Below the pieces are notes generated by a model, which did no database searches, was not told where the DNA came from, and worked only from the letters and a program-made list of their open reading frames with translations. The position numbers and the translations under genes are program-made. Shown piece after piece: positions 1,054 to 40,782 of a DNA stretch of 64,000 nt. The stretch is from Escherichia phage vB_EcoM_VR7. The DNA lies in the sequence record NC_014792.1; one strand, given 5' to 3'. Numbering within the stretch: position 1 is the stretch's first letter; every line of letters starts with the position of its first letter.

Positions 1054-1094
1054 TTTATTCTCCAGTGTTTTATTTGGTAACTCAGTATGGGATA

Positions 1095-1124
1095 ATTATA
1101 CACTATCCCACCTGGAAGTAAAAC
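1095..1124 (-). promoter_or_regulatory. T4 early-type promoter (-35 GTTTTAC, -10 TATAAT) with the -10 in the loop of inverted repeat GGGATA/TATCCC
   Basis: Minus strand GTTTTAC-N17-TATAAT; inverted repeat gggata(1089-1094)/tatccc(1104-1109). Confidence 0.5.
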
Positions 1125-1996: not shown

Positions 1997-2551
1997 TTAC
2001 CGGTAGCGACCCGGTTTCTTGTTTGGTATTTCAAATTGCGTAGATTTAGTATCTAATTTTTTAACTATGGAACTTATGTCATGAAAGAAAAACCATTCAC
2101 CATTTATATGGTCCTGATTATAAATGGTGTGCATATATTTTTCAAGTTCTACTGCATCCTGGGAATATCTAAATGATACTATTTTAAAACTTTTAAAAGG
2201 TGAAAATGTATTTGCTGCTATAGCTCTAACATCGGGTTCTATACTTCTTCCTATTTTATAATAATTAGGATTTGTAGTGTCTACCATTATGTATACAAAA
2301 GCTTGTCGATAACTTTTTTCTATATCGAATTCATCTTTAAATTTCAATAGATTTAGAGCAGCCGTTCTACAAAATATTCCCCATATCGACGAGCGTTTAG
2401 CTTCGGTCATCGAAAAGAATTTTTTCTTATCTATGATTTTAAGAAAAGCCACCTTTTCAATTAGTTCTTGTGTTATTTCAAAATTACCATGGTATATTAA
2501 TCCAGCTTTTATAGCCAAATTAATTTGGTCCCAGTCTACATCACTTCTCAT
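1997..2551 (-). CDS. T5orf172 / GIY-YIG-superfamily domain protein (184 aa) in the tRNA island; possible homing-endonuclease-like nuclease
   Basis: C-terminal half carries FVYIMV...NYYKIGRS...R...E...NGEWFFF, resembling the GIY-YIG/T5orf172 signature; occupies the position where T4 has segB in its tRNA cluster. Confidence 0.5.
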   Translation of the reverse strand: MRSDVDWDQINLAIKAGLIYHGNFEITQELIEKVAFLKIIDKKKFFSMTEAKRSSIWGIFCRTAALNLLKFKDEFDIEKSYRQAFVYIMVDTTNPNYYKIGRSIEPDVRAIAANTFSPFKSFKIVSFRYSQDAVELEKYMHTIYNQDHINGEWFFFHDISSIVKKLDTKSTQFEIPNKKPGRYR

Positions 2552-2570
2552 AATATTATTCTCATTAATT

Positions 2571-2647
2571 TGGTCGGGGTGAAAGGATTCTAACCTTTAA
2601 CCTGCGGTTTAGAGGACCGCTACTCTATACAATTGAGTTACACCCCG
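2571..2647 (-). tRNA. tRNA-Arg (anticodon UCU)
   Basis: Minus strand folds as a cloverleaf: acceptor CGGGGTG/CACCCCG, D-stem ACTC/GAGT, anticodon stem GCGGT/ACCGC with loop CCTCTAA (TCT), T-stem AAAGG/CCTTT, encoded 3' CCA. Confidence 0.8.
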
Positions 2648-2651
2648 TGTT

Positions 2652-2726
2652 TGGTGGCCCTTGCTGGTTTCGATCCAGCTACCTATCAGTTATGAGCTGA
2701 CAGCTCTCCCATTGAGCTAAAGGGCC
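2652..2726 (-). tRNA. tRNA with CAU anticodon (Met, or Ile if lysidine-modified)
   Basis: Minus strand cloverleaf: acceptor GGCCCTT/AAGGGCC, D-stem GCTC/GAGC, anticodon stem GTCAG/CTGAT with loop CTCATAA, T-stem GCTGG/CCAGC, encoded CCA. Confidence 0.85.
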
Positions 2727-3265: not shown

Positions 3266-3649
3266 TTAACCTTCATCAACAATAGTGTGGGTGTTGGCAT
3301 TAACAATCTGCCACCAGTCAAAACGGGTTAGAACCATAACATGGTTGTTTTCATTTTCTTTAATAATATCACGCAGTTCATCTTCAGTCGCAGCTTTTGC
3401 AATTAAATCTGCATAACCGCCCCGGGGATAATAGCTATCGCCAGCAAAGAGTAAAAAGTTTGTTTTGATATTCTTGAATTCTTCAAGAGTAATAACCGTT
3501 CCAGATGGTTGTTGAACAATATCTACGTAACTATATCCTAATTTCTGGGCATTATCTACCGCTTCAAGCAGGGTGTCATGTGCCCACCCAATTTGACATT
3601 CTGGTTTGTCAGATGGGTTTGCCTGATAATCCGCATACACTTTATACAT
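3266..3649 (-). CDS. Hypothetical protein (128 aa)
   Basis: ORF track 3266..3697 trimmed to the ATG at 3649 with RBS; start abuts the stop of the upstream small ORF. Confidence 0.45.
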   Translation of the reverse strand: MYKVYADYQANPSDKPECQIGWAHDTLLEAVDNAQKLGYSYVDIVQQPSGTVITLEEFKNIKTNFLLFAGDSYYPRGGYADLIAKAATEDELRDIIKENENNHVMVLTRFDWWQIVNANTHTIVDEG

Positions 3650-3650
3650 T

Positions 3651-3836
3651 TTACTCACCTTTAGACATTTTATCCATAACGAAAGAGATTGAACCAATTA
3701 AGAATGCAACTACTAAAGAGATTATATTCTCAGAAGTTGAAAGCATATTCAACATAAAGCCAGCAAACATGCTAAAACCAAAAGCGGTAACAGCAACAAG
3801 GGCAGTAACATTTCTAATTAATTCGCAACGTTTCAT
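3651..3836 (-). CDS. Hypothetical small membrane protein (61 aa)
   Basis: ORF track; hydrophobic segments; own promoter cassette upstream. Confidence 0.4.
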   Translation of the reverse strand: MKRCELIRNVTALVAVTAFGFSMFAGFMLNMLSTSENIISLVVAFLIGSISFVMDKMSKGE

Positions 3837-3864
3837 TTTATTCTCCTCATTAGTTGATGGGATA

Positions 3865-3895
3865 ATTATACACTATCCCATATCTAAAAGTACAC
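3865..3895 (-). promoter_or_regulatory. T4 early-type promoter with the GGGATA/TATCCC stem-loop
   Basis: Minus strand GTGTAC-N19-TATAAT; same cassette as at 1095-1124. Confidence 0.45.
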
Positions 3896-4129
3896 TTATT
3901 TTTTACGGAAAATTGATTTATACTGTTTAGCCCATTTCTCGATAACTTCTGCTGGACCCTGGATAACAAAATAGTCCCCAAACTCTTCACCGCCGAGCTG
4001 ACCGTAATTATCTAAGGCGTCGCGGAGAGTTCCATAAGGCATTTCGCCCATTTTATCTTTCTTGCCGGTGTAAATGAATTGCACTTTAACATCAGCAGTT
4101 TCATTAATAAATTCTTGATAAGTTTTCAT
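3896..4129 (-). CDS. Internal-protein-like protein with capsid-targeting N-terminus MKTYQEFINE (77 aa)
   Basis: N-terminus MKTYQEFINE matches the T4 internal-protein targeting sequence MKTYQEFIAE (gp21 cleavage after I/L-x-E); body is unique. Confidence 0.7.
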   Translation of the reverse strand: MKTYQEFINETADVKVQFIYTGKKDKMGEMPYGTLRDALDNYGQLGGEEFGDYFVIQGPAEVIEKWAKQYKSIFRKK

Positions 4130-4185
4130 GTTGTCTCCAGTAGTTGATGGGATAATTATACTGCAGTTATCCCATCACGTACACT
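4103..4185. repeat. Direct repeat copy A (~80 bp: promoter/stem-loop, RBS and first codons of an internal-protein gene)
   Basis: Near-identical to 4436..4518 by eye. Confidence 0.8.
4155..4184 (-). promoter_or_regulatory. T4 early-type promoter within the GGGATAA/TTATCCC stem-loop cassette
   Basis: Minus strand GTGTAC-N18-TATAAT; inverted repeat gggataa(4149-4155)/ttatccc(4167-4173). Confidence 0.5.
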
Positions 4186-4462
4186 AAATTTTTGTATATT
4201 GTCCAGCTTTAACTTTTTTCAGTTCACGAGGGCTTACCGCGTAAGTGAATGGAGCATTCCAGGAAGAACTGACTTTGTAACCTTTAGTCAACATCATTGC
4301 TGAAACTTTCTTGTTATCAGGACCGTTTTCGCCTTTAACAAGAAACAACTCAAATGCGCCACCATCAACCGGTTTGGCCTTAACCATCAGATGTCCTTTC
4401 AGGTCTTCCAGCATATCCGGGTGACTAATTGATTCGTTAATAAATTCTTGATAAGTTTTCAT
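4184..4462 (-). CDS. Internal-protein-like protein with capsid-targeting N-terminus MKTYQEFINE (92 aa)
   Basis: Same N-terminal decapeptide; unrelated body. Confidence 0.7.
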   Translation of the reverse strand: MKTYQEFINESISHPDMLEDLKGHLMVKAKPVDGGAFELFLVKGENGPDNKKVSAMMLTKGYKVSSSWNAPFTYAVSPRELKKVKAGQYTKI

Positions 4463-4518
4463 GTTGTCTCCAGTAGTTGATGGGATAATTATACTGCAGT
4501 TATCCCATCGTGTACATT
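4436..4518. repeat. Direct repeat copy B (~80 bp promoter/stem-loop/RBS/first-codons cassette)
   Basis: Near-identical to 4103..4185. Confidence 0.8.
4488..4517 (-). promoter_or_regulatory. T4 early-type promoter within the stem-loop cassette
   Basis: Minus strand -10 TATAAT with -35-like ATGTAC 18 nt upstream. Confidence 0.45.
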
Positions 4519-4816
4519 ACATTTTTGAACCGCGAATCACGCCATAAGCTGCGAAGTCGTCAGTGATGTTCTTAGGGGTGTTTTTACCAGTTTCAATATA
4601 TGCGATGCTGGATTTCTGACCAAATGAGGTAATTTTATTATAGTTAGAGTCAAGGAAAGTATAACCATTTTTACGCAGCTGGTCAAAGTCTTCAGCGTCG
4701 CCTTTACCTTTGAAGTCAACCCATTTGTATGTGTTTTTCTTCTGAAGGCCCAGAGGCCAGGTTTTTGCTTCTGCCAGGTAATTATTTTCTACCAAAAATT
4801 CGTGGAGCGTTTGCAT
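4517..4816 (-). CDS. Internal-protein-like protein with N-terminus MQTLHEFLVE (99 aa)
   Basis: Divergent version of the targeting motif ending in L-x-E; unique body. Confidence 0.6.
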   Translation of the reverse strand: MQTLHEFLVENNYLAEAKTWPLGLQKKNTYKWVDFKGKGDAEDFDQLRKNGYTFLDSNYNKITSFGQKSSIAYIETGKNTPKNITDDFAAYGVIRGSKM

Positions 4817-4824
4817 TTGAAATC

Positions 4825-5097
4825 CTATTTTAGATAAATTGCATATTTTTTATAACCAGCTGTCTCATGGCGGAGACCCTTGTCATTGGCAAAACGCTCA
4901 ATGTTATTAATTTGGTTCTGGTCAAGTTCAGAGATGTCAAACGCGAAAAAGTTGCGTTTGTTACCAATTGTTATATGGTCAGTCAAGTCAATGCTATACA
5001 AGTGATTGATATTGTCAATCATAGCTTTGACTGCTTTACTAATTTTTACTTCTTCATTCAGTTGGGACTCGTTGAAAAGTTCATTAAAAGTTTTCAT
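4825..5097 (-). CDS. Internal-protein-like protein with N-terminus MKTFNELFNE (90 aa)
   Basis: Targeting-like N-terminus; 8-bp spacing to the next gene suggests operon expression. Confidence 0.6.
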   Translation of the reverse strand: MKTFNELFNESQLNEEVKISKAVKAMIDNINHLYSIDLTDHITIGNKRNFFAFDISELDQNQINNIERFANDKGLRHETAGYKKYAIYLK

Positions 5098-5105
5098 AAG
5101 AAACC

Positions 5106-5438
5106 TTATTTATACAGTTTAGCCAGTTCTTTACGTCCGCGAGCAGACATAATGAATTGTTCATCACCAATTTTGAAATAAGCCATACCACCGTCAACAG
5201 CGATGCCAATTTCTTTAGTACCTTCTTTGCCTTTCCACTTGCCACCAGATTTTAGGACAGCTTCAACCGCAGCTTTGGAATATTTGGACGTTTGAAAACG
5301 TTCATTACCAATCTGAAAGAAAACACCATCTGCATTTTTGGATAAACCAAATTTCAGAGAGCCTTCACTATCATCAATTGATTTGGTCTCATTGATGGCG
5401 GATTCGGCTAAAAACTCGTTATAAGTCTTGATGTTCAT
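5106..5438 (-). CDS. Internal-protein-like protein with N-terminus MNIKTYNEFLAE (110 aa)
   Basis: ORF track 5106..5471 trimmed to the ATG at 5438 (GGAG RBS); the extension would overlap the promoter; body has two internal repeats (FFQIGNERF / YFKIGDEQF). Confidence 0.6.
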   Translation of the reverse strand: MNIKTYNEFLAESAINETKSIDDSEGSLKFGLSKNADGVFFQIGNERFQTSKYSKAAVEAVLKSGGKWKGKEGTKEIGIAVDGGMAYFKIGDEQFIMSARGRKELAKLYK

Positions 5439-5469
5439 TTTAACTCCGTTTGTTCGTTGGTGTAGGAAC

Positions 5470-5498
5470 ATAATACTGCACCTACACTCATTTGTACA

Positions 5499-5499
<1 letters not shown>
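5470..5499 (-). promoter_or_regulatory. T4 early-type promoter (-35 GTGTAC, -10 TATTAT) within hairpin GTAGG/CCTAC
   Basis: Minus strand GTGTAC-N18-TATTAT; inverted repeat 5462-5466/5481-5485. Confidence 0.45.
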
Positions 5500-6189
<690 letters not shown>

Positions 6190-37504: not shown

Positions 37505-39064
37505 ATGAAAAAGAATGCATTAGTTCAAAAATGGTCCGCTCTGCTGGAAAACGAAGCTCTTCCTGAAATCGTTGGTGCTTCTAAACAAGCTATCATCGCT
37601 AAAATCTTTGAAAACCAGGAACAAGATATCCTGACCGCTCCAGAATACCGTGACGAAAAAATCTCCGAAGCATTTGGTTCTTTCCTGACCGAAGCTGAAA
37701 TCGGTGGTGACCATGGTTATGATGCTACCAATATCGCCGCTGGCCAGACCTCTGGTGCAGTAACTCAGATTGGGCCGGCAGTTATGGGTATGGTTCGTCG
37801 TGCTATCCCGCATCTGATTGCGTTTGATATTTGTGGCGTACAGCCTCTGAACAACCCGACTGGCCAGGTATTTGCCCTGCGTGCAGTTTACGGTAAAGAC
37901 CCTGTAGCTGCTGGTGCTAAAGAAGCTTTCCACCCGATGTATGCTCCGAACGCTATGTTCTCCGGTCAGGGTGCTGCTGAAGCTTTCGAACCTCTGGCTG
38001 CAAGCAAAGTTCTTACCGTTGGTAAAATTTATTCTCACTTCTTCGAAGCAACCGGTTCCGCACACTACCAGGCCGTTGAAGCTGTAACCGTTGATGCCGC
38101 CGCTACTGATGCTGCTAAACTTGACGCTGAAGTTACCAAACTGCTCGAAGCTGGTAAACTGGCAGAAATCGCTGAAGGTATGGCTACCTCTATCGCCGAA
38201 CTGCAGGAAGGTTTCAACGGTTCTCAGGATAACCCGTGGAACGAAATGGGCTTCCGCATCGATAAACAAGTTATCGAAGCTAAATCCCGTCAGCTGAAAG
38301 CAAGCTACTCTATCGAACTGGCACAGGACCTGCGCGCTGTTCACGGTATGGACGCTGATGCCGAATTGAGTGGTATTCTGGCTACTGAAATTATGCTGGA
38401 AATCAACCGCGAAGTTATCGATTGGATTAACTACTCCGCACAGGTTGGTAAATCTGGTATGACCAACACCGTTGGCGCTAAAGCTGGTGTGTTCGACTTC
38501 CAGGACCCGATTGATATCCGTGGTGCTCGTTGGGCTGGTGAAAGCTTCAAAGCTTTACTGTTCCAGATTGATAAAGAAGCCGCTGAAATCGCTCGTCAGA
38601 CCGGTCGTGGTGCAGGTAACTTCATCATCGCTTCCCGTAACGTAGTTAACGTACTGGCTGCAGTTGATACCTCTGTATCTTATGCTGCTCAGGGTCTGGG
38701 TAAAGGTTTCAACGTTGACACCACTAAAGCCGTGTTCGCTGGTGTTCTGGGTGGCAAATACCGTGTCTACATCGACCAGTATGCTCGCGCAGATTACTTC
38801 ACCATCGGTTACAAAGGCGCTAACGAAATGGATGCTGGTATCTACTACGCACCATATGTTGCACTGACCCCGCTGCGTGGCTCTGACCCGAAAAACTTCC
38901 AGCCAGTTATGGGCTTCAAAACCCGTTACGGTATCGGTATTAACCCGTTCGCTGACCCGGCAGCTCAGGCTCCGACCAAGCGTATTCAAAACGGCATGCC
39001 GGACATCGTTAACAGCCTCGGCTTGAACGGTTACTTCCGTCGCGTATATGTTAAAGGAATTTAA
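37505..39064 (+). CDS. 23: gp23 major capsid protein
   Basis: 519 aa; synteny. Confidence 0.95.
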   Translation: MKKNALVQKWSALLENEALPEIVGASKQAIIAKIFENQEQDILTAPEYRDEKISEAFGSFLTEAEIGGDHGYDATNIAAGQTSGAVTQIGPAVMGMVRRAIPHLIAFDICGVQPLNNPTGQVFALRAVYGKDPVAAGAKEAFHPMYAPNAMFSGQGAAEAFEPLAASKVLTVGKIYSHFFEATGSAHYQAVEAVTVDAAATDAAKLDAEVTKLLEAGKLAEIAEGMATSIAELQEGFNGSQDNPWNEMGFRIDKQVIEAKSRQLKASYSIELAQDLRAVHGMDADAELSGILATEIMLEINREVIDWINYSAQVGKSGMTNTVGAKAGVFDFQDPIDIRGARWAGESFKALLFQIDKEAAEIARQTGRGAGNFIIASRNVVNVLAAVDTSVSYAAQGLGKGFNVDTTKAVFAGVLGGKYRVYIDQYARADYFTIGYKGANEMDAGIYYAPYVALTPLRGSDPKNFQPVMGFKTRYGIGINPFADPAAQAPTKRIQNGMPDIVNSLGLNGYFRRVYVKGI

Positions 39065-39114: not shown

Positions 39115-39396
39115 TCATACCATACCATTTAAATGAACTTCTACCCGGCGCTTGATGAGGTCTCTGAAATTAACACTGTTCTCTTGAAGTTTCAACCAGT
39201 TACCTGATTTGTCTTTGGTGTGTGTAGAATAATTACCATTCCACCAAAAATCAGTATCATATGCTAAGTTTTCATATTTTTTAACTAGTTTGTTCAGAGC
39301 ATTACCATTAACACCATTTGGGTATTTGTTGACCAATGCAACAACTTCAATTTCCAGATTTTTAAAGGTATTCCGAAGGAAAGATACTTTGTTCAT
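39115..39396 (-). CDS. Hypothetical small protein (93 aa) on the opposite strand between genes 23 and 24
   Basis: ORF track 39115..39408; start placed at the second ATG (39396) with GGAG RBS; own early-type promoter cassette upstream. Confidence 0.45.
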   Translation of the reverse strand: MNKVSFLRNTFKNLEIEVVALVNKYPNGVNGNALNKLVKKYENLAYDTDFWWNGNYSTHTKDKSGNWLKLQENSVNFRDLIKRRVEVHLNGMV

Positions 39397-39432
39397 TTTA
39401 GACTCCATTGTTTGGTAACTCAGTATGAAATC

Positions 39433-39462
39433 ATTATGTCTTATCTTAATCGGGTTGTAAAC
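39433..39462 (-). promoter_or_regulatory. T4 early-type promoter (-35 GTTTAC, -10 CATAAT)
   Basis: Minus strand GTTTAC-N18-CATAAT; cassette ggtaactcagtatgaaatcattatg. Confidence 0.5.
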
Positions 39463-39501: not shown

Positions 39502-40782
39502 ATGGCAAAGATTAACGAACTGCTGCGCGAGTCAACTACTACATCCAGCAACTCATTAGGCCGCCCGAATCTTGTTGCTTTGACCCGCGCTACAACTAAA
39601 TTGATTTACCGCGATATCATCGCTGAACAACGTACTAACCAGCCTGTTGCTGCGCTGTACGGTGTTAAATATATTACTCCTGATAATGAATTCAGTTTCC
39701 AGACTGGTGCTACTTATGGTGGTGAAGTCGGTTCTAAAGACCGTACAACTATTCCAGAATTAGCCACAGCTACTCAGCCTGTTGCTAAAGGCGAATATGT
39801 AAAATATCAAAATATCGTTTACAAAGCTCTGGTGGATAATCCATTTGCAACGACTACAGAAACAGTATTATCTGATGTTCTACAGGAAGGTCTTATTGCA
39901 TCGACTATTCGTTTAGTTCCTGATGCAGCGCATACCGAGAAATTTGAAGCCGGTGATGTTGAAATTAGCAACGCCGTGTTCCAGGTTAATAAATGGAATG
40001 CTCCTGTTAAATCCCGTAAATTGAAAACTGCACTGACTGTTGAACTTGCTCAGGATATGGAAGCAAACGGTTTTAATGCTCCTGCTTTCCTGGAAGACCT
40101 GCTTGCAACTACCATGGCAGACGAAATTAACAAAGATGTTCTGCAGTCTCTGATTACCGTTTCCAAGCGTTATAAAGTCGCTGGCATTTCTGATAAAGGT
40201 TTCATCGATTTGACATATGATTCAGCTCCAGAAGGCGCACGTAAACTGTACGAACTGGTTTGCGAAATGAACTCTGAAATTCAGAAAACTACATCTTACT
40301 CTGGTACATTCGTTGTTGCCTCAAGTCGTGTGGCCGCGATGCTCGCCGGTTCCGGCTGGTTGAAACATAAACCTGAAGATGAACAATGGCTCCCGGAAAC
40401 CGCGTACGGCTATTTGATTAATGGTCTTCCTGTATTCTGTGATGTTAACAGTCCATTGGATTATGTAACCGTTGGCGTTAAAGAAAATTACGGTGGAAAC
40501 GAAGTCGTAGGCTCAATCTTCTATGCTCCTTATACCGAAGGCCTGGACTTAGATGATGAAGAACACGTAGGTGCGTTTAAGGTCATTGTGGACCCAGACA
40601 GCTTGCAGCCATCTATCTCCCTGATGGTTCGTTATGCACTTTCAGCCAACCCTTATACCGTTGCTAAAGACGACAAAGAAGCTCGTATTATCGATGCAAC
40701 TAATATGGATTTAATGGCCGGCCAGAGCAACATGTCTTATCTGCTCGGTGTTAAACTTCCACCAATCATTTATGAGGCGTAA
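39502..40782 (+). CDS. 24: gp24 capsid vertex protein
   Basis: 426 aa; MAKINELLRESTTT...GRPNLVALTRATTKLIY matches remembered T4 gp24. Confidence 0.95.
   Translation: MAKINELLRESTTTSSNSLGRPNLVALTRATTKLIYRDIIAEQRTNQPVAALYGVKYITPDNEFSFQTGATYGGEVGSKDRTTIPELATATQPVAKGEYVKYQNIVYKALVDNPFATTTETVLSDVLQEGLIASTIRLVPDAAHTEKFEAGDVEISNAVFQVNKWNAPVKSRKLKTALTVELAQDMEANGFNAPAFLEDLLATTMADEINKDVLQSLITVSKRYKVAGISDKGFIDLTYDSAPEGARKLYELVCEMNSEIQKTTSYSGTFVVASSRVAAMLAGSGWLKHKPEDEQWLPETAYGYLINGLPVFCDVNSPLDYVTVGVKENYGGNEVVGSIFYAPYTEGLDLDDEEHVGAFKVIVDPDSLQPSISLMVRYALSANPYTVAKDDKEARIIDATNMDLMAGQSNMSYLLGVKLPPIIYEA

Follow-up and report, generated by a model that had tools for sequence, protein, structure and literature searches.

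Near-identical promoter-hairpin-leader cassettes as probable sites of gene shuffling in the internal-protein locus of Escherichia phage vB_EcoM_VR7

The internal-protein locus of VR7

We analyse a 64,000-nucleotide stretch of Escherichia phage vB_EcoM_VR7 (NC_014792.1; the whole stretch is called the window) and concentrate on a pair of direct repeats, R1 and R2, which flank a small gene of the internal-protein (IP) locus and very probably recombine to shuffle the genes around them. The phage is T4-like and belongs to the genus Gaprivervirus; positions 3600-5600 share 98.8% identity with Escherichia phage vB_EcoM_VR20, and part of the same interval is matched by 134 phage records. Every gene of the first 8 kb lies on the minus strand, in the order (taken from the VR20 annotation and comparison with T4) gp3, gp1, 57A, 57B, five small genes, trna.4, trna.3 and tRNA genes. 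The region from 57B to trna.4 is the ipI-type IP locus, and where T4 has a single gene, ipI, the window has five. We rebuilt this array in 12 Gaprivervirus genomes, 11 of which were scored by script; SP18 has no recognisable trna.4 start and was judged separately from its locus and blastn. The genes are listed below, with module letters (A, B, E, F, G, D and H across all genomes) assigned in this analysis.

5499-5954, minus strand: 57B homologue, conserved gene opening the array; 2H phosphoesterase
5106-5438, minus strand: module A, 110 residues, N-terminus MNIKTYNEFLAE; leader-bearing; present in 11 of 11 scored loci
4825-5097, minus strand: module B (ip9), 90 residues, MKTFNELFNE; internal head protein; present in 11 of 11 scored loci
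4517-4816, minus strand: module E, 99 residues, MQTLHEFLVE; internal head protein
4184-4462, minus strand: module G, 92 residues, MKTYQEFINE then S; lies between the repeats; VR7_gp153-like; putative internal protein
3896-4129, minus strand: module D (ip6-type), 77 residues, MKTYQEFINE then T; internal virion protein
3651-3836, minus strand: trna.4 homologue, conserved gene closing the array

Modules B (ip9), E (the 99-residue protein) and D (ip6) match PHROGs annotated as internal head or virion proteins, and A and G match only PHROGs of unknown function; a Pfam search returned no match for the five array proteins or trna.4. The N-termini of the array fit the 10-residue capsid targeting sequence of T4 IPs, with its residues 4 and 7 and I/L-x-E at 8-10. 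In T4 this sequence suffices for packaging, residues 4 and 7 serving targeting and residues 8 and 10 processing (PMC9026906). MKTYQEFINE, found in G and D alike, has an aromatic residue at 4 and at 7 and I-x-E at 8-10. The other leaders of the array (MKTFNELFNE, MQTLHEFLVE and MNIKTYNEFLAE) differ from it in codons and residues, and leader function therefore does not require the identity that R1 and R2 have.

The repeats carry an early-type promoter, a hairpin and a leader

R1 and R2 were delimited by repeat search and ungapped comparison. In ungapped register they are direct repeats of 95 nucleotides (nt), spaced by 333 and 94.7% identical, and they include a perfect run of 73 nt (4104-4176 = 4437-4509) which takes in synonymous sites and spacer bases. 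Their 60-nt flanks are 20% and 32% identical, which is the random level. The first-pass annotation, made from the letters alone, had described near-identical repeats at 4103-4185 and 4436-4518, and both intervals lie inside our 95-nt copies. It had also proposed that similarity restricted to the coding N-termini would speak against a shared cassette; the similarity in fact reaches 65 nt upstream of the ATG. The inverted repeat, the -10, the GTGTAC-like -35, the ribosome-binding site and the ten codons MKTYQEFINE that it listed can all be read in both copies:

4100-4194, minus strand: R1, cassette upstream of module D
R1 parts, minus strand: -35 GTGTAC 4184-4179; -10 TATAAT 4160-4155; GGAG 4138-4135; ATG 4129; leader codons 4129-4100
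4146-4176, minus strand: R1 hairpin; 5' arm 4176-4167 (GATGGGATAA), loop 4166-4156 (CTGCAGTATAA), 3' arm 4155-4146 (TTATCCCATC)
4433-4527, minus strand: R2, cassette upstream of module G
R2 parts, minus strand: -35 TGTACA 4516-4511; -10 TATAAT 4493-4488; GGAG 4471-4468; ATG 4462; leader codons 4462-4433
4479-4509, minus strand: R2 hairpin, with the same sequence as that of R1

On the minus strand R1 reads CAAAAATTTA-GTGTAC-GT-GATGGGATAA-CTGCAGTATAA-TTATCCCATC-AACTACT-GGAG-ACAAC-ATG AAA ACT TAT CAA GAA TTT ATT AAT GAA. An A-rich tract (CAAAAATTTA or CAAAAATGTAA) precedes the -35 and is followed by TGTACG or TGTACA-N17-TATAAT, the spacer of 17 nt being counted from the hexamer TGTACN; the -35-like hexamer of R1 shares bases with the stop codon of the gene before it. 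T4 early promoters have as their consensus GTTTAC at -36 to -31, together with an A/T-rich UP region and a -10 of sigma-70 type (PMC1524935; PMC2988021), and the consensus given for T4/PST elements is TTTACW-N17-TAYWAT (PMC4122927); the cassettes fit the latter type with one or two deviations. The window holds 7 matches to the T4-early-type pattern TKTAC-N18-YATWAT where 0.74 would be expected; six are minus-strand matches that coincide with, or lie close to, the sites listed from the letters alone. A simple sigma-70 scan detects R2 and three other cassettes.

The Shine-Dalgarno (SD) layout is GGAG-N5-ATG. In T4 the RegB endoribonuclease cuts early mRNAs at the motif GGAG, which here is the SD of both repeats (4135-4138 and 4468-4471, minus strand), and a RegB homologue is encoded by VR20.

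Comparison with VR20 bears on how the two copies came to be so alike. The VR20 G cassette reads ...GATAAATGCAG...GGAGCTACTA and ...AAATGCAG, differing at several core positions, whereas the window G cassette reads ...GATAACTGCAG...GGAGACAAC and ...AACTGCAG, matching the window D cassette. R1 is thus 89.7% identical to the orthologous G cassette of VR20 and 94.7% identical to its own neighbour R2, which points to a conversion tract of at least about 45 nt having homogenised R2 with R1 in this lineage. We read the 73-nt perfect pair as the product of recent gene conversion. In an exact-core search of IMG/VR the GGGATA-type cassette (GGGATAA/TTATCCC stem) was found in four genomes only, and it is therefore a lineage-specific variant and not a widespread mobile sequence.

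Cassette junctions in related phages

We compared window positions 3500-6000 by pairwise blastn with four relatives (VR25, SP18, VR26 and RZ). VR25 aligns to 3500-4194 and to 4433-5955, and on the VR25 side the two alignments overlap by exactly one 95-nt repeat; VR25 is therefore the window minus one 333-bp unit. Its sole cassette has an R2-type upstream end, following module E (E-tail), and an R1-type downstream end, leading into module D (D-head). SP18 and P896 lack ip6 (module D), with the junction inside a cassette, and in VR26 and RZ other genes sit between a cassette on one side and the end of ip9 on the other.

Across the array the module order is constant, 57B-A-B-[E]-[F]-[G]-[D]-[H]-trna.4, while content varies. 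The first-pass annotation had suggested looking for cassette-bounded gene swaps in related genomes, and the 12 loci hold many module combinations. The combinations scored are:

ABEGD: window, VR20, UPEC01
ABED: VR25
ABFD: VR26, UPEC07
ABEG: P896
ABEFGD: TH44
ABEFD: EAWsc9
ABFDH: RZ, MN01

Module G is missing from VR25, VR26, RZ, EAWsc9, UPEC07 and MN01, and module E is swapped for F (ip5-type) in VR26, RZ, UPEC07 and MN01.

The cassettes themselves show where these combinations are joined. In every cassette compared in register, the bases between the stop codon and the -35 depend on which gene lies upstream (E-, G-, F- and D-tail types), and those from the SD into the leader depend on which gene lies downstream; a shared core, GATGGGATAA...TATAATTATCCCATCAACTACT, joins any tail to any head. 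With the 5' end of each cassette tied to the gene before it and the 3' end to the gene after it, crossovers fall in the shared core. E-, G- and F-tails occur at the 5' end of cassettes whose 3' end is of D, G or trna.4 type: the trna.4 cassette of P896 combines a G-tail with a trna.4 head, the tail being fused to the trna.4 SD, and the G cassette of TH44 combines an F-tail with a G-head. Such chimeric cassettes look like the products expected of homologous crossovers inside the cassette. Together the VR25 deletion, the cassette-internal junctions and the chimeric cassettes of relatives support the earlier proposal that the repeats act as recombination substrates.

The hairpin around the -10

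The palindrome of R1 and R2 forms a hairpin with a 10-bp stem and an 11-nt loop that encloses the -10; five bases of TATAAT come from the loop and its last T is the first base of the 3' arm. Folded as RNA, R1 reaches -18.1 kcal/mol (z -3.55 against shuffled sequences) and R2 -13.4 kcal/mol (z -2.78). The 64 kb hold exactly two copies of the palindrome GATGGGATAA-N11-TTATCCCATC, and 100 shuffles gave none.

We collected 28 IP loci from IMG/VR, found via 57B and holding one to several IP genes each, which gave 32 distinct cassettes, those of T4 included. In these the 3' arm always starts at the end of the -10 and the distance of the 5' arm from the -35 varies. We aligned the 32 cassettes with MAFFT but discarded the search for one common structure, because with a 5' arm of variable position column-wise covariation is not meaningful. 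As a replacement we folded each cassette with its own 5' and 3' halves and with halves swapped between cassettes, in 400 permutations. Own halves fold with a mean of -11.3 kcal/mol and swapped halves with -6.6 +/- 0.5 kcal/mol, and none of the 400 permutations reaches the observed value, a count that is not a probability since the T-even cassettes are mutually related. Hairpins of -10 kcal/mol or below occur in 23 of the 32. The arms vary and their complementarity is kept: GGGATA/TATCCC, GAGGTA/TACCTC, GGGCTAT/ATAGCCC and GGGTC/GACCC, with GGTCTATAG/CTATAGACC and GTGTAGGGATA/TATCCCTACAC as further matched pairs. Arms that differ from cassette to cassette and still match are direct evidence, at the level of sequence, for selection on pairing, with the hairpin apparently kept by compensatory change. 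Three visibly chimeric cassettes (L012_IPup, L024_IPup1 and L024_IPup2), which switch type near the -10 or loop, have weakened stems.

Two simple roles for the hairpin were considered. That of an intrinsic terminator is unsupported, with no U-run and no call in the consensus terminator scan, and we keep it as a bare possibility. A translational switch by SD sequestration is rejected for this phage, where the SD is mostly unpaired both in read-through RNA and in RNA from the cassette's own promoter. Some relatives differ: in the cassette upstream of trna.4 of four loci (L010, L016, L019 and L033), the SD lies within AAATGGAGATG, a perfect pairing partner of CATCTCCATTT just after the -35, and the unpaired probability of the SD is 0.00 in read-through RNA versus 0.63 in own-promoter RNA. 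We take this cassette to resemble the translational switch of the T4 lysozyme/soc type.

Other cassettes in the window

Beyond R1 and R2, two more cassettes border the array and one late-promoter motif lies within it:

5450-5498, minus strand: cassette upstream of module A; TGTACA-N17-TATTAT; a different stem, GTGTAGG/CCTACAC; z -2.44
3842-3895, minus strand: cassette upstream of trna.4; GTGTAC...TATAAT; stem ATGGGATA/TATCCCAT; z -2.79; right-hand boundary of the array
5107-5114, minus strand: late-promoter motif TATAAATA; overlaps the end of module A, 9 nt upstream of the ip9 start

Modules B (4825-5097) and E (4517-4816) each have an upstream spacer of only 8 nt and no early cassette. The late motif TATAAATA has 21 occurrences in the window against 4.4 expected. 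With a late motif at 5107-5114 and no early cassette before B and E, the array thus seems to be a mix of late- and early-driven genes, and late read-through transcripts starting near 5107-5114 probably cross R2 and R1.

Six related but diverged cassettes had been listed in the first-pass annotation. A T4-early-type -35/-10 pair is present in all six, and the hairpin holds up in half of them: it clearly beats shuffles at 1071-1124 (z -2.5), 3851-3895 (z -2.8) and 5461-5499 (z -2.4) and is marginal at 1591-1642 (z -1.2), while at 705-755 (z -0.3) and 39411-39462 (z +0.9) no hairpin is stable against shuffles and the sites are early-type promoters. A second box after the -10, CATAATGATTCCATACTGAGTTACC, is common to 706-755, 1593-1642 and 39413-39462 and in part to 1071-1124 (minus strand). 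It differs from the box of the IP cassettes, ATCAACTACT, is also seen in VR20 (L041 at 30350, 1716 and 29761) and might represent a leader conserved at the start of the transcript.

Upstream of the ip5-type module F, EAWsc9 (L037) and TH44 (L036) carry AAGGGGATAATTATCCCCTTTTTAT, a hairpin with a T-run and without -35 or -10, whose arms resemble the GGGATAA/TTATCCC stem of the window cassettes; it could have arisen by collapse of a cassette, or be a terminator related to one. VR20 also has a second IP locus (L041, 57.3-59.2 kb of its record). There a cassette with the same stem as R1 and R2 (TTGATGGGATA/TATCCCATCAA) stands upstream of ip7, which has the leader MKTYQEFI as in the repeats, and the ip5 of the same locus is 50% identical to module F, a first-locus gene in other phages. 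Given these likenesses, exchange between the two IP loci looks possible.

The 57B homologue is labelled anti-CBASS protein Acb1 in EAWsc9 and RNA ligase/2H phosphodiesterase elsewhere; by the EAWsc9 label, the IP array adjoins another probable anti-defence gene. At 1997-2726 (minus strand) lie tRNA-Arg (2571-2647) and tRNA-Met (2652-2726), then an open reading frame (ORF) of 184 residues (1997-2551) that is missing at the corresponding place in VR20 and has a longer form in VR26, and this tRNA region, like the IP array, varies among close relatives. An ORF of 97 residues on the minus strand (39115-39408) lies between the major capsid gene (37505-39064) and a vertex gene (39502-40782), which are on the opposite strand. 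It has its own early-type promoter-like site at 39433-39461, with no hairpin, forming a small early module within a late structural block.

Relation to known systems

Among the elements most like R1 and R2 are the promoter early stem-loops (PeSLs) of RB49 and phi1, defined as composites of about 100 bp with an AT-rich tract, a sigma-70 promoter, a stem-loop usually placed between the -35 and -10 or over the -10, an SD and a start codon; they cluster in hyperplastic regions, where insertions, deletions and replacements are brought about by them (PMC2839356). For these PeSLs, minicircles and crossover points inside the element were demonstrated (PMC2839356), and PeSLs were later extended to T4/PST and KVP40/nt-1 (PMC4122927). 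Both papers agree with the earlier remark that PeSLs shuffle genes in the hyperplastic regions of T4-type genomes. Compared with PeSLs (RB49/phi1, PST/T4 and nt-1/KVP40), the window elements share the composite layout, a conserved length of about 100 nt, a hyperplastic position, and an association with indels and replacements among close relatives with crossovers inside the element. They differ in having no homology to the RB49 type (near-perfect TTGACA/TATAAT, Gn-loop-Cn stems), in a conserved block that runs 30 nt into coding sequence (the targeting leader), and in a hairpin that lacks a U-run.

Closer still are the elements of the T-even IP loci. Arbiol 2010 credits Repoila 1994 with having already seen PeSL-like elements at two T-even IP loci, and that account gives them T4 early promoters and weaker AT-rich stem-loops and treats them as analogues of PeSLs, not homologues (PMC2839356); Comeau 2014 says the same again (PMC4122927). 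Repoila et al. 1994 (EMBO J 13:4181) enters our comparison through the description in later papers. As described there, the elements share with ours the locus (57B to trna.4), the combination of a T4-type early promoter with an AT-rich hairpin, and a position flanking leader-bearing IP genes that differ between close relatives. They differ in stem (GGGATAA/TTATCCC in the window), in -35 (GTGTAC in the window) and in -10 (TATAAT vs TACTAT), and the window array is longer (five IP genes vs one in T4), with copies unusually alike. T4 ipI itself has two flanking cassettes of the same layout, GTTTAC-N-GATACTAT, upstream of ipI and of trna.4, with stems GATGAGGTA/TACCTCATC and ATAGGGT/ACCCTAT. The leader likewise corresponds to the capsid targeting sequence of T4 IPs (Mullaney and Black 1996; PMC9026906), as a ten-residue MKTYQEFI-x-E with a prohead-protease cleavage motif, by which the window's proteins would be packaged and cut.

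Since the window elements have the early-promoter sequence, the stem-loop over the -10, the SD and start position and the junction-bearing indels expected of PeSLs, we consider them best filed as probable Gaprivervirus members of the T-even IP-locus cassette family. Integron arrays offer a looser comparison, with one-directional, small, unrelated and probably adaptive genes, imperfect-palindrome repeats and combinatorial presence and absence. The IP array, however, has no integrase and no attI or attC organisation, and each of its cassettes carries a promoter and an N-terminal leader; the likeness is an analogy only, and the exchange would most simply be general homologous recombination.

Discussion

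R1 and R2 are very probably copies of a portable expression-and-targeting cassette of the T-even IP locus, which recombine to shuffle payload genes. Such a cassette would unite a T4-type early promoter, a hairpin palindrome around the -10, an SD and a ten-codon leader, the last serving as a capsid-targeting sequence to be cleaved by the prohead protease after I/L-x-E. With the same stretch of about 70-95 nt before unrelated gene bodies, the very active homologous recombination of the phage could cross over there. A crossover between R1 and R2 in one genome would delete, re-insert or duplicate a 333-bp unit (gene G and one cassette), and between co-infecting relatives it would join any upstream module to any downstream module. 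Because every product would keep a promoter, a ribosome site and an in-frame leader, payloads could be shuffled without loss of expression or packaging. The payload genes would probably encode injected anti-defence proteins. IPs enter the host with the DNA, and those that have been studied disarm its defences: IPI targets GmrSD, and the system countered by IPIII is unknown (PMC9391042). That the array proteins are packaged and cleaved, and the direction and rate of events, are what we infer from these comparisons.

Several observations weigh against this picture. The swap of E and F beside ip9 occurs where no cassette stands, exchange between co-infecting relatives requires only flanking homology and does not need the cassette, and junctions in surviving genomes are biased to intergenic sites under any mechanism. 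The -35 is GTGTAC or TGTACA instead of GTTTAC, with no TGn extended -10, and promoter activity of R1 and R2 is a reasonable inference from the consensus and from orthology to the upstream regions of T4 ipI and trna.4. No U-run trails the stem in R1 or R2, and neither hairpin was flagged by the consensus terminator scan, which leaves the terminator part of the PeSL definition unsupported for these copies. Finally, the gene between the repeats had been called an internal-protein gene from the start; the leader motif agrees with this, and with only a PHROG of unknown function and no Pfam match besides we keep module G as a putative internal protein.

The alternative that survives best concerns the hairpin, which might serve above all in read-through RNA, for example from the late-promoter motif at 5107-5114, be it as an attenuator, as a processing site, as a 3'-end stabiliser or as a device separating read-through from own-promoter RNA, with recombination a by-product of its repetition. 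We regard this as possible but doubtful. The predicted transcription start falls within the 3' arm, and the hairpin would therefore form only in read-through RNA or in single-stranded DNA, a placement that favours an RNA role, as does the termination of transcription that RB49 PeSL stem-loops caused in a reporter (PMC2839356). In 21 of the 32 cassettes folding is better on the sense than on the antisense strand (Wilcoxon p = 0.036, a weak test on related sequences), although in R1 and R2 themselves it is the antisense that folds slightly better. Some relatives have the SD-pairing cassette described above, but the window SD is largely accessible in read-through RNA (unpaired probability 0.38 to 0.77), and the stem has neither a terminator tail nor a terminator call. 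An RNA role would in any case be compatible with a recombining cassette and does not replace it.

It is also conceivable, though rather unlikely, that the hairpin is a dedicated element, either concentrating crossovers as a DNA hairpin or cruciform or acting as an RNA switch in late read-through transcripts only; the covarying arms, the -10 that is always enclosed and the absent terminator tail are what suggest it. That the palindrome is a DNA-level site (a cruciform or hairpin for a structure-specific nuclease, a point of template switching at the fork or the target of a dedicated recombinase), giving integron-like site-specific exchange, strikes us as quite improbable. Arms that covary with complementarity kept would suit such a site, as would the type switch at or near the -10/loop in L012_IPup, L024_IPup1 and L024_IPup2. 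Yet ORF, annotation and PHROG checks found no recombinase gene in or beside the array, the VR25 crossover, judged against VR20, lies between ...ATGCAG and GGAG|ACAAC and need not be in the loop, and the P896 junction is 3' of the hairpin. In a T4-type phage 73 identical nt are enough for general recombination; T4 recombines even at microhomologies of 6-10 bp (PMC9391042).

The recombining cassette must also be set against a reading in which R1 and R2 are alike solely through purifying selection on promoter, ribosome site and leader, with no role in recombination. A function is plausible for each segment of the repeat, and the leader is constrained at residues 4, 7, 8 and 10 (PMC9026906). This would not account for a 73-nt perfect run across synonymous sites and spacer bases when other functional leaders and cassettes in the array differ freely and the orthologous G cassette of VR20 differs at several core positions; nor would it yield the exact one-unit deletion of VR25 or the common chimeric cassettes, and we hold it to be very improbable. 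That a single gene was once duplicated in tandem, leaving the repeats behind as the two bodies diverged, which the head-to-tail arrangement, the 333-bp period and the similarly small genes might suggest, is barely credible, since the bodies have 20-32% nucleotide identity (random level) and belong to separate protein families against 95-100% in the cassette, and G and D occur independently in relatives.

The principle of such elements is already described, in literature since 1994 and 2010. To this the window adds a clear natural example, with a five-gene array, a 73-nt perfect pair and a sister phage, VR25, with exactly the predicted deletion, and our analysis adds quantitative evidence for hairpin maintenance by compensatory change, which strengthens the case for the hairpin as a selected part of the cassette. 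If the hairpin were indeed a dedicated element, the IP array would be a self-contained, integron-like generator of diversity for injected anti-defence proteins. More generally, a single cassette carrying promoter, ribosome site and packaging leader would allow a payload to be swapped in one step, a matter of interest for host range and for the engineering of therapeutic phages.

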